This document shows positions 90 to 2,726 of a DNA stretch of 64,000 nt, piece after piece. Source of the DNA: a bacterium. GTDB lineage: Bacteria; Lernaellota; Lernaellaia; Lernaellales; Lernaellaceae. The notes below the pieces were generated by a model. That model made no database searches. It was not told where the DNA came from and saw nothing but the letters and a program-made list of their open reading frames with translations. The position numbers and the translations under genes are program-made. The stretch covers positions 88,388 through 152,387 of the forward strand of contig DAIMDW010000007.1 in NCBI GenBank assembly GCA_036725605.1. The letters run 5' to 3'. Within the stretch, counting starts at the first letter, position 1; every line of letters starts with the position of its first letter.

Positions 90-2726
90 ATGAACATTCT
101 GATGCTCCATCCGCACGACATCTACTCCAATTCGGAGCCATGGACCGTCCGCGTCACGTACCTGGCCTCCGAGTTTGTCAAACGCGGCCACAACGTGCGG
201 CTGATTTATCATTTGCTCGATCCGCGCACCAACCTCGAAGAGGCCACCGCGCGCCAGGAATATCCGTTCACGACCATCCCCGTGCATCGCTACCAGTTCG
301 CGCTGGTCGCCAAGATGCGCAGCACCGCGCAGTTCGCCGAATGGGCCGACGTCATCCATTTCCAGAAGTGTTTCCCGCAGGTGAGCGTGCCGGCGATCTG
401 GGCCGCGTACCGCCTGGGCAAGCCGGTGCACTACGACTGGGACGACTGGGAATACGGCATTTACAATTACAATCCGATGAACAAGGTCGTCGGCTGGTCG
501 ATCAGAACGTTCGAGAAGTTGCTGCCCCGGCTGGTCGACACCGTCAGCGTCGCCTCCGAGGCGCTGCGCGAAATGGCGTTGAACCTGGGCGTGCCCGACC
601 ATCGCATTTTCGAAGCGCACGTCGGCGGCGACCTCGAGCGGTTCCGGCCCGACATCGACGGCGGCCGCGTGCGCCAACTGCACAACATCGACGGCCCGAT
701 GGTTTTGTACCTCGGCCAGTTGCACGGCGCGCAGTACCTCGAGCTGTTTTTGCAATCGGCCAAACGGCTGATCGACGAGGGCTCGCCCGCGACCTTCGTG
801 GTGGTCGGCGGCGGCGAGCGCTTCGGCGAGCTGTTCCAGTTGACCGAGCACCTGGGCATCAGCCACCGCGTCGTATTCACCGGCGCGATCGACCATCACG
901 AAATTCCGCAGTACATCAACGCCGCCGACGTGGCCGTCGCCTGTTTCGAGGACACGCCGCAAACGCGTTGCAAAAGCCCGCTGAAAATTTGCGAATACAT
1001 GGCCAGCGGCGCGGCGATCGTTGCCAGCAACATGGGTGAGGTGCCGCGAATGATCGGCGACGCGGGCGTGATCGTCGCGCCGGGCAACGCCGAACAACTG
1101 GCCGCCGGCGTGGGCAAGCTGCTTGCCGACGACGACCTGCGCCGCCGTCTGGGCGCCAAAGCCCGCCTGCGCGCGGAAACAAAATACAACTGGGGCGTCA
1201 CCGCCGAGAACCTGCTGGAGGCCTATGAACTGGGCCTGCATGAGCGCCGGTGGCTGTTCTGGCAGACCGATCCGAAAAAAAAAACGATCCCGCTGACCAC
1301 GCCGCTGCCCCAACCCCGCGCGCTGCCGGTCGCTGAACCCAAGACCGAAGAACCTCCCGCGCCGCCGCCCGCCGCCCCGGAACCTCCGGCGGAAAAAGAC
1401 GCGCCCGCGGTGCCGACCTACGCGGCGATGCCCGGCGAGCAAAAATCCTCCGCCGGCGACAACGGCGGACCCGGCTCGCGTTTGCGCGCCCCGGCGTTTC
1501 TCACCCGCGTGCGTTCGTTCATCGAGGGCAACCTCGACATCGTCGGCGTACTCGACGGCCGCGAAAGCTTCGTCGGTCCGCACACGGTGCAGATCGACCC
1601 GACGAACGTGTGCAACAACGATTGTCTCGCCTGCTGGTGCAACAGCCCGTTGCTGCTCGACAAGGCGCTGCCGTCGCCCAAGCGCGACGCCGTGCTGCCG
1701 CTGCCGATCATCATCCGGCTGCTCGACGACATGATCGAAATGGGCAGCAAGGAAGTGTACATCGCCGGCGGCGGCGAGCCCTTCTGCCATCCGGACATCC
1801 TGACGATCATCGCCGAGATCAAAAAACGCGGGCTGGTGTGCAACGTGAACACCAACTTCACGCTGATCGACGACGAGGTCGTGAAGTTCCTTGCCGACCA
1901 ACGCGTCGACTACATGACCGTCTCGGTGTGGTCGGGCACGCCGGACGTGTACAGCCTGCTGCATCCGAACAAGACCGAGGAAACCTACGAGCAGATCAAG
2001 CGCAACCTGATGCGCCTCAACGAGATCAAGCACATGGTGCCGTTCATCAAGGTTTACCATGTGATCAACAATCTCAATTTTCACGAAATCAAAGAGATGG
2101 TCGATTTCGCGCTCGACACGAAAAGCGAATCGGTCGAGTTTACCGTGCTCGACACCATCCCCGGCCGCACCGACGTGCTGCTGATGAACGAAGAGCAACG
2201 CGCCTGGCTGCATCGCGAAGCGTTGCGCATCCGCGAGTGGATCGACAACGAGCATCCGCCGCGCCTGCACCTGTTCAAATACGATCAGTTCCTGCGGCGC
2301 ATCGGCGGCAGCCACACGACCACCGGCGAGCACGACATGACGATCATCGATTCGATGCCCTGCACGGTTGGCTGGCAGTTCGCGCGCATCATGGCCGACG
2401 GCGACGTCAACGGCTGCCTCAAGGCGCACCGCATCCCGCTGGGCAACTTGCACGAAACGACGTTCAAGGAACTGTGGACCAGCGACATCCAGCGCGATTG
2501 GCGCGACAAAACCAACGTGCTGGCCAAGGAAGATCCGTGGTTTGCCAACATCGGCAACGATCCGCACGCGAAGATCGGCTGTTATAAATCCTGCGACGAC
2601 CTGGGCCGCATCGAGCACCTGGTCGGCCGCTACCGCGCGATGTCCCCCACCGAACGCGCCGTGCTCAAGGGCGCGGCCTGGTGGCTTAAGTTCCGCGAAA
2701 AACAACTCGAAATGGGCGATTCGTGA
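90..2726 (+). CDS. Fusion protein: N-terminal GT4-family glycosyltransferase (GT-B fold), a Pro-rich linker, and a C-terminal radical SAM domain with a SPASM extension.
   Basis: N-terminal half resembles GT4 enzymes (…KICEYMASGAAIVASNMGEVPRMIGDAGVIVAPGN… EX7E-like region). Linker is PLPQPRALPVAEPKTEEPPAPPPAAPEPPAEK. C-terminal half carries CNNDCLAC (CX3CX2C), the GGGEPF SAM-binding motif and a Cys-rich SPASM-like tail (CTVGW…C…CYKSCDD). Continuous 878-aa frame. Confidence 0.8.
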   Translation: MNILMLHPHDIYSNSEPWTVRVTYLASEFVKRGHNVRLIYHLLDPRTNLEEATARQEYPFTTIPVHRYQFALVAKMRSTAQFAEWADVIHFQKCFPQVSVPAIWAAYRLGKPVHYDWDDWEYGIYNYNPMNKVVGWSIRTFEKLLPRLVDTVSVASEALREMALNLGVPDHRIFEAHVGGDLERFRPDIDGGRVRQLHNIDGPMVLYLGQLHGAQYLELFLQSAKRLIDEGSPATFVVVGGGERFGELFQLTEHLGISHRVVFTGAIDHHEIPQYINAADVAVACFEDTPQTRCKSPLKICEYMASGAAIVASNMGEVPRMIGDAGVIVAPGNAEQLAAGVGKLLADDDLRRRLGAKARLRAETKYNWGVTAENLLEAYELGLHERRWLFWQTDPKKKTIPLTTPLPQPRALPVAEPKTEEPPAPPPAAPEPPAEKDAPAVPTYAAMPGEQKSSAGDNGGPGSRLRAPAFLTRVRSFIEGNLDIVGVLDGRESFVGPHTVQIDPTNVCNNDCLACWCNSPLLLDKALPSPKRDAVLPLPIIIRLLDDMIEMGSKEVYIAGGGEPFCHPDILTIIAEIKKRGLVCNVNTNFTLIDDEVVKFLADQRVDYMTVSVWSGTPDVYSLLHPNKTEETYEQIKRNLMRLNEIKHMVPFIKVYHVINNLNFHEIKEMVDFALDTKSESVEFTVLDTIPGRTDVLLMNEEQRAWLHREALRIREWIDNEHPPRLHLFKYDQFLRRIGGSHTTTGEHDMTIIDSMPCTVGWQFARIMADGDVNGCLKAHRIPLGNLHETTFKELWTSDIQRDWRDKTNVLAKEDPWFANIGNDPHAKIGCYKSCDDLGRIEHLVGRYRAMSPTERAVLKGAAWWLKFREKQLEMGDS

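Follow-up and report, generated by a model that had tools for sequence, protein, structure and literature searches.

A conserved ten-adenine run at the domain junction of a glycosyltransferase-radical SAM fusion gene, a candidate slippage switch

The 64,000-nucleotide stretch of a Lernaellaceae contig analysed here (DAIMDW010000007.1, positions 88,388 to 152,387; the window) carries near its start a single open reading frame (ORF) that joins a family 4 glycosyltransferase (GT) to a radical S-adenosylmethionine (rSAM)/SPASM module, with a run of ten adenines (A10) where the linker between the two domains begins. We lean towards the view that A10 is a selected slippage switch, giving a GT-only product beside the fusion and most likely acting through slippage of RNA polymerase (RNAP). 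The comparison of orthologues showed A10 to be kept as a nucleotide feature independent of codon phase and amino-acid context. The gene and its tract are laid out as follows.

90..2726, + strand: fusion ORF with ATG start, 878 aa, comprising GT4 glycosyltransferase, disordered linker and radical SAM/SPASM
90..1259, + strand: GT4 (GT-B fold) domain, aa 1-390 (PF13439/PF13579/PF00534/PF13692)
1260..1490, + strand: Pro/Ala-rich disordered linker, aa 391-467 (AlphaFold2 (AF2) predicted local distance difference test (pLDDT) <50)
1275..1284, + strand: A10 slippery tract, K396-K398 and the first base of T399 (read from the sequence; exact A10 in orthologues)
1294..1296, + strand: TGA in the frame entered on loss of one A (A9), ...DPKKK-RSR, about 401 aa, GT only (simulated indel)
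1334..1336, + strand: TGA in the frame entered on gain of one A (A11), ...DPKKK-NDPADHAAAPTPRAAGR, about 415 aa, GT only (simulated indel)
1491..2723, + strand: radical SAM domain with C-terminal SPASM/twitch-like extension, aa 468-878 (PF04055, PF13186)
1611..1634, + strand: CX3CX2C radical SAM cluster motif (C508, C512, C515), invariant in 43 aligned homologues

Conservation of the fusion and of the A10 tract

The tract reads ccg AAA AAA AAA Acg (P K K K T), exactly at 1275-1284 and with the KKK codons that an earlier note on this DNA had given, and it opens the linker 6 residues beyond the last GT helix of the AF2 model. It is the one A10/T10 run of the window and also its only coding A run of at least 8, as the other runs of such length, A8 and A9 at 40163-40170 and 49288-49296, are intergenic and stand beside the hairpins GGGCGCG...CGCGCCC and GCCCCCCG...CGGGGGGC; both are intrinsic terminators on the minus strand. 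By chance 0.06 A10 runs are expected per window and 5 of 100 dinucleotide shuffles gave at least one, and judged from the window alone A10 is weakly significant and mildly unusual. Its significance derives from comparison across genomes.

Homologues were sought in a collection of 5.8 billion proteins. The same architecture of GT4, Radical_SAM and SPASM was found in more than 100 protein clusters from several phyla (776-1057 aa; 40-97% identity), whose source names include Candidatus Lernaella stagnicola, Ca. Alcyoniella, Wallbacteria, Planctomycetes and Deltaproteobacteria. The earlier note had proposed comparing homologue lengths and held that homologues that are never fused would count against it; since fused homologues fill these clusters, the GT-rSAM fusion is genuine. 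Species-representative genomes and metagenomes were also scanned, which gave 160 loci with an uninterrupted fusion in 73, equal to 61 unique genes. An exact A10 occupies the GT/linker junction in 20 of these genes, A9 in 3 and A8 in 3, with the others at 7 or less, and most of the remaining fused genes hold no junction run of 6 or more. Over the 19.7 kb of junction sequence the A runs of length 6, 7, 8, 9 and 10 number 10, 2, 5, 3 and 20, respectively, against 516, 178, 46, 9 and 1 A/T runs in 932 kb of flanking DNA. A10 is about 1000-fold enriched at the junction over the flanking DNA, and the junction distribution peaks at ten.

The run is found in a relative of 97% identity from other assemblies (L001/L002), while in Ca. 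Lernaella stagnicola (74% identity) it is displaced by one base, ccg CAA AAA AAA AAC, giving P-Q-K-K-N. The third codon phase is taken by L171 and L172 from another clade, with ACA AAA AAA AAA GAC and AGA AAA AAA AAA GCA. With these two included the tract genes number 25, comprising 22 with A10 and 3 with A9, and they display 18 amino-acid contexts at locus GC contents of 31-64%; the 22 A10 runs are distributed over phase 0 (13 genes), phase 1 (7) and phase 2 (2). The ten A's are preserved by synonymous compensation, as seen in GGT GAA AAA AAA AAG Gtt compared with GGG GAG AAA AAA AAA Ata, and in GGT AAG AAA AAA AAA Att the fourth lysine is AAG even at 31-34% GC, capping the run at ten. Of 93 lysine runs elsewhere in the tract genes only 22 are encoded entirely by AAA, and none of the 3 KKK runs is; the AAA share of lysine codons outside the tract is 31-75%, and 43% in the window's gene. 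A protein motif does not account for this pattern; selection for a nucleotide run of a given length does.

In a neighbour-joining tree, tract-less clades separate the tract-bearing ones. The tract falls at alignment columns 395-396 in a clade including metagenome-assembled genomes (MAGs) of Cloacimonadota, at 406 in a Planctomycetota MAG and at 407-410 in the window's clade, and at column 544, about 53 codons further into the linker, in L008/L031. At the former site L008 retains an A7 remnant (offset 1182), and in L112/L130 the position that corresponds to the A10 of L171/L172 is occupied by A8. This suggests that the run may decay when it is no longer maintained, or once a new one has arisen downstream. 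The 3' ends of unfused GT genes hold no A10, and only sporadic A8-A9 runs in AT-rich genomes.

Predicted products of losing or gaining an adenine

The earlier note had stated that slippage at the run would uncouple the two domains, and simulated indels agree. With one A fewer the sequence becomes AAA AAA AAA CGA TCC CGC TGA and translation would end after 3 codons; with one A more it would end after 17. The slipped products are predicted to carry the trans-frame peptides ...DPKKKRSR and ...DPKKKNDPADHAAAPTPRAAGR. Because the tract lies 6 residues past the last GT helix, truncation is predicted to leave the whole GT domain, and either slipped product would thus consist of a complete GT domain with a short tail. 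Similarly, among 23 tract genes the first stop lies 0-8 codons on when one A is lost (17 in a single gene) and 1-24 codons on when one is gained, and in the phase-2 genes L171/L172 the stops lie 4-9 codons on. In the high-GC clade that includes the window, equally close stops in both other frames are found at 0.2-3% of gene positions, the value for the window's gene being 0.5%.

In the window (1285-1300) and in the orthologues of its clade the codons after the tract are often ..CTG ACC.. (L-T), which gives TGA in the frame entered by the loss of one A. The conserved item is either the L-T dipeptide or the hidden stop.

Alleles out of frame

Two cases were found in which the genomic run sets the two domains in different frames. 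In the metagenome contig L133 the run is A11 and out of frame, whereas three assemblies of the same population (L053, L095 and L108) carry A9 in frame. L133 is 99.8% identical to L053 over 3.9 kb, and the tract is the sole internal indel in that length; its GT ORF ends in ...GEKKKKSLGASSF*, and the remainder to the contig end, about 90 nt, is in another frame. The second case comprises L169 and L170, whose genes are identical and read GGT GAA AAA AAA AAG CTT ... TGA, so that the GT stop comes 8 codons past A10. Here the rSAM part lies in the -1 frame, and one added A restores an uninterrupted fusion of 828 aa. The rSAM part is 65% identical to that of a relative, close to the 69% of the GT part, and is therefore intact rather than decaying. 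Before the TTG start chosen by the gene caller for L169/L170 no clear ribosome-binding site was seen. Also present in register in these genes is A_AAA_AAG, the heptamer classical for -1 frameshifting.

A third candidate, the A8 of L168 (P0121), was set aside as an OFF allele, since its long-read assembly (nanopore/pilon) is rich in errors and holds many broken genes. The protein collection contained no truncated allele from the clade of the window. A search with 400 aa of the GT brought up only fragments from contig ends (P0135, P0177, P0240 and P0141) and truly unfused, tract-less GTs (P0123 and P0124), in a listing that held proteins of 255-524 aa and omitted the fusions of about 830 aa with the identical segment, which makes absence uninformative for longer proteins.

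Proposed mechanism and alternative explanations

In the proposed mechanism A10, placed just past the GT fold, would be kept by selection as a frameshift-prone site. RNAP would slip on it to give a fraction of mRNAs with A9 or A11, ribosomes on the slipped mRNAs would stop 3 or 17 codons on, and a GT-only protein of about 400-415 aa would be made alongside the 97-kDa fusion, a logic like that of tau and gamma of Thermus dnaX. We infer both the slippage at the RNA level and the making and use of the short product. RNAP slippage is favoured because a length of ten, constant in different phyla and at different GC contents, agrees with the RNA-DNA hybrid of 9-10 bp in bacterial RNAP and with the run of 9 A/T at which slippage is known to become efficient (PMC5009743, PMC1088944). 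It is further favoured by the independence of the feature from codon phase, by stop codons that follow soon in either of the other frames, a trait shared with Thermus dnaX, and by an out-of-frame genome that keeps its downstream domain intact, which is expected if slippage yields both products from either genomic frame. RNAP slippage and replication slippage are not exclusive, as any A10 slips in both, and ribosomal -1 frameshifting or sliding on AAA codons (PMC4363877) may contribute too, though seven bases would suffice for it. The earlier note had offered a genuine fusion or a slippage-controlled one as alternatives. Both descriptions apply: the fusion stands, and the tract, which seems to be selectively maintained, makes it look slippage-controlled.

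The main rival, which we regard as unlikely though far from negligible, is phase variation at the DNA level, in which A10 would be kept for its frequent mutation by replication slippage and cells would switch heritably between fusion and GT-only forms, and so between a modified and an unmodified glycan, for example to escape phages that recognise the surface polysaccharide. The L133/L053 pair is a heritable or assembly-level change of DNA length; it supports phase variation directly and fits it equally well, its tract being the sole indel between A11 and the A9 of three assemblies of one population, and L169/L170 carry an out-of-frame allele as their consensus. The surface-polysaccharide context of the gene (Wzm/Wzt ABC transporter, Wzt_C, other GTs, NDP-sugar (nucleoside diphosphate sugar) enzymes) is likewise direct support for phase variation, and there is precedent in the A8/A9 tracts of the Vibrio cholerae O antigen, ON in 35 of 37 strains (PMC3441752). 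In contrast, classical contingency tracts differ in length among strains, whereas an exact ten is found here in 22 of 25 unique genes from several phyla, at 31-64% GC and in all codon phases. The consensus alleles are nearly all in frame, with no OFF allele for the window's clade among the 5.8 billion proteins, and L169 is out of frame with an undecayed rSAM part, as expected if slippage still expresses it.

RNAP slippage has further points to answer. Conserved and mostly-ON poly-A tracts also occur in DNA-level contingency genes, V. cholerae wbeL and manA (PMC3441752), and L169 and L170 may share one sample. In the low-GC, AT-rich clade the stops lie no nearer to the tract than expected by chance; stops are frequent everywhere in these genomes, so that the stop-proximity test says nothing there. 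The tract is missing from about half of the fused lineages. The junctions of the tract-less genes, scanned for in-register X_XXY_YYZ heptamers, gave only scattered, non-conserved matches. Thus, a GT-only isoform would not be universally required, and the tract would be a device that some clades use although the enzyme does not need it. All of these, together with the L133/L053 pair, weigh against RNAP slippage as the explanation.

That the tract was selected for some other role, either as a polybasic KKK motif or as an AAA-rich ribosome pause that aids GT folding before the rSAM domain emerges, is improbable. The run always lies at the linker start, just past the GT fold, and iterated AAA lysine codons slow the ribosomes of E. 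coli (PMC4363877); both points speak for this explanation. However, the residues are not conserved while the nucleotide run stays at ten (PQKKN has two lysines, and there are 18 contexts), AAG appears at the edges of the run precisely where it caps the run at ten, the tract of L008/L031 is displaced by about 53 codons into the linker, and half of the fused lineages have no such basic run. A pause also leaves the close stops in both other frames of the high-GC genomes unaccounted for. Very improbable is an artefact of sequencing or assembly, with a true A9 or A11 and two genes, or a meaningless chance run. In its favour, homopolymers are error-prone, the L168 assembly reads A8, and the window alone has a chance expectation of 0.06, with 5 of 100 shuffles giving a run. 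The earlier note's suggestion of a sequencing error was rejected, as an identical in-frame A10 recurs in another organism (L001/L002, 97%) and in 20 further unique genes from different assemblies, and the in-frame reading gives a full-length protein collinear with more than 100 homologues. Chance is opposed by a run-length distribution that peaks at 10 at the GT/linker junction only.

Taken more broadly, and here with doubt slightly ahead of belief, A10 could be a deeply conserved, cross-phylum recoding signal in an ordinary cellular gene, neither mobile nor dnaX, that sets the ratio of GT-only to fusion product by RNAP slippage, and a flipped frame of the L169 type could switch the default product.

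Domains of the fusion enzyme

The 878-aa frame described by the earlier note, a complete GT-B glycosyltransferase joined to an rSAM/SPASM module, is confirmed by both Pfam and the AF2 model. The GT part is matched by Glyco_transf_4/Glyco_trans_4_4 at aa 20-184 (PF13439, 39.8 bits against a cut-off of 28.5; PF13579, 43.9 against 29.7) and by Glycos_transf_1 at 198-360 (PF00534, 92.7 against 26.4), and the rSAM part by Radical_SAM at 504-674 (PF04055, 78.2 against 29.5) and SPASM at 758-806 (PF13186, 34.2 against 21.5); all four domain matches exceed the gathering cut-offs. The two halves are a GT4 glycosyltransferase and a member of the radical SAM superfamily. Sequence matches of the GT domain in the PDB are the GT4 enzymes Tll1590 sucrose-phosphate synthase, MshA and PimA. 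No named NCBIfam subfamily (PEP-CTERM stp3, WcaI or MshA type) is reached by the GT domain, the best being TIGR04063 with 98 bits against a cut-off of 442; the remaining NCBIfam matches are likewise far under their cut-offs, and no curated family claims the rSAM domain.

In the full-length AF2 model, based on 43 homologues, both domains display pLDDT values above 90 and residues 391-467 values below 50. The GT part adopts a two-Rossmann fold with its final helix at 368-390, and the rSAM domain modelled alone reaches a pLDDT of 94.8. A PDB sequence search with the rSAM domain gave no close relative. Foldseek placed its model with many rSAM structures at a probability of 1.0, among them SuiB, SkfB, BlsE, PqqE, anSME, DesII, MoaA, viperin and BtrN, with template modelling (TM) scores of 0.4-0.6 and 13-19% identity. 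Conservation is strong in both halves of the 43-sequence alignment, with the catalytic residues invariant. The invariant set comprises C508, C512, C515, GGGxP (G560-G562, P564), C758, C776, C831 and C835. The C-terminal invariant cysteines number only four, against the seven of the SPASM motif CX9-15GX4C ... CX2CX5CX3C ... C, and would fit one auxiliary cluster of twitch-like or partial SPASM type.

The linker of the orthologues varies from 76 to 724 nt. Separate GT and rSAM genes are found in Omnitrophota and Woesearchaeota, usually 1-4 kb apart, and where both genes of such split loci were seen (mainly Omnitrophota) the rSAM gene is upstream. At a few loci (L058/L146, L156 and L071) a GT gene is followed directly by an rSAM gene in a different frame and without the tract. 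Being fused in some lineages and separate in others indicates that the two activities belong together. The unfused GT relatives (L045; P0104-P0118) are 490-530 aa long; where the fusion has its rSAM part, these have some 130 aa at the C terminus that no Pfam family matches.

Gene neighbourhood

The other features of the window referred to here are the following.

1..89, + strand: 3' end of the upstream gene, a large glycosyltransferase, with its stop TAG at 87-89 abutting the ATG at 90
2723..3349, + strand: carbamoyltransferase C-terminal domain alone, 208 aa (PF16861, E 2e-68), its start overlapping the fusion stop by 4 nt
3342..6029, + strand: second fusion, carbamoyltransferase N-terminal domain with a paralogous rSAM/SPASM module, 895 aa (domain matches, tblastn)
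6033-7136, - strand: convergent rSAM/SPASM gene, 367 aa (best match the mycofactocin maturase model, 150 bits against a cut-off of 265)
40163-40170 and 49288-49296, - strand (terminator strand): intergenic A8 and A9 runs, GC hairpin with T-run

In the 97% identical locus L001 a Glycos_transf_1 gene of 1075 aa ends one base before the fusion gene. The rSAM domain of the second fusion is about 37% identical to that of the first; its arrangement is conserved in L003/L004, and its junction carries no A-run. The carbamoyltransferase is divided between two genes in permuted order, with the C-domain gene first, and the same order is found in Ca. Lernaella stagnicola (L003 12580-15859). The convergent gene at 6033-7136 was considered as an inverted third member of the cluster and rejected, since its identity to the third rSAM gene of L003 is only 25% and it is hence not the orthologue; no notable inverted repeats flank it, and it may be unrelated to the cluster.

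Related loci hold a Wzm/Wzt ABC transporter with Wzt_C, a methyltransferase with Wzt_C, several other glycosyltransferases, NDP-sugar epimerases/dehydratases, a phosphodiesterase-family protein and two to four more rSAM/SPASM genes, and the locus looks like a polysaccharide cluster of the ABC-transporter type. A nucleotide sugar would supply the unit that the GT domain transfers, and this sugar or the growing glycan would then be modified by the rSAM domain. In a Desulfatiglandales MAG (L166 15989-22451, on a 2.2 Mb contig) an ORF of more than 2742 aa, running off the locus, holds several Radical_SAM, SPASM and B12-binding domains and stands a few genes downstream of the GT-rSAM fusion.

Significance and comparison with known systems

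The GT4-rSAM family is uncharacterised and widespread, occurring in polysaccharide clusters of many uncultured phyla. Literature searches on GT, rSAM and carbamoyltransferase fusions and on Lernaella gave nothing on it, and no paper was found that describes the GT4-rSAM tract case. The type of mechanism is known, either as dnaX-like slippage or as poly-A phase variation, and the case is new. Its apparent novelty lies in the fusion family itself, in a run of fixed length across phyla and in three phases, and in slippage that would remove one catalytic domain. If true, one gene would dose the fused enzyme as two products, and the coupling and uncoupling of two catalytic domains in a polysaccharide-modifying enzyme would be tunable. 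Annotators should be wary of recording split forms as pseudogenes or of treating the run as an error, and synonymous AAG substitution provides a simple experimental handle on the family. To our knowledge, well-supported productive slippage in bacterial chromosomal genes is limited to few cases, dnaX, mxiE and insertion sequence (IS) elements. The genome-wide survey of Baranov et al. deliberately skipped slippage that shortens the product, which is hard to recognise (PMC1088944). The comparative signal here is unusually clean, as the run is exactly ten, independent of phase, relocated in one subclade, and out of frame with an intact downstream domain.

The closest likeness is to dnaX (tau/gamma) of Thermus thermophilus, in which an in-frame homopolymeric A run lies in one long ORF with close stops in both other frames. 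There an A9 run yields about 50% of truncated gamma (PMC5009743, PMC1088944); slippage gives mRNAs of mixed length and a short product without the C-terminal domains, as predicted here. A10 displays three features of a dnaX-type slippage site, with a run of at least 9 nt, conservation beyond coding need and nearby stops in both frames. In contrast to Thermus dnaX, the protein family is another one, the run is A10 instead of A9 and lies between two catalytic domains, and its conservation extends over several phyla and all three codon phases. The -1 frameshifting of E. coli dnaX on A_AAA_AAG is another parallel, as every tract has an in-register A_AAA_AAA or A_AAA_AAG. L169/L170 have GAA AAA AAA AAG there, and since their rSAM part is read in the -1 frame, a ribosome shifting by -1 would produce the fusion. 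However, the heptamer suffices for ribosomal frameshifting, yet ten A's are conserved here. No downstream frameshift stimulator was seen, but no search was aimed at one or at RNA structures that might aid slippage. Similarly, L169/L170 resemble Shigella mxiE (T9) and the transposases of IS elements, where the run parts two ORFs that stand in different frames, and an mRNA with a single additional base encodes the fusion (PMC1088944). In contrast to these, the fusion is the product of standard decoding in the window and in most of its relatives.

Glycosyltransferases controlled by homopolymers occur in Campylobacter, Helicobacter and Haemophilus. The A8 of wbeL and A9 of manA in V. cholerae O1 are homopolymers of polysaccharide genes that are mostly ON and occasionally OFF, with premature stops after the tract (PMC3441752). 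Contingency tracts of this type are species-specific and abolish the whole protein, whereas here only the second domain would be lost and the length is fixed across phyla. The rSAM half resembles SPASM/twitch enzymes acting on sugars or peptides (BtrN, DesII, BlsE, anSME, SuiB, SkfB and PqqE), its best structural matches, in its partial TIM barrel, CX3CX2C motif and probable C-terminal auxiliary-cluster extension. At the low identities and TM scores given above it is distant from all of these, and none of them is known to be fused to a GT4 domain.

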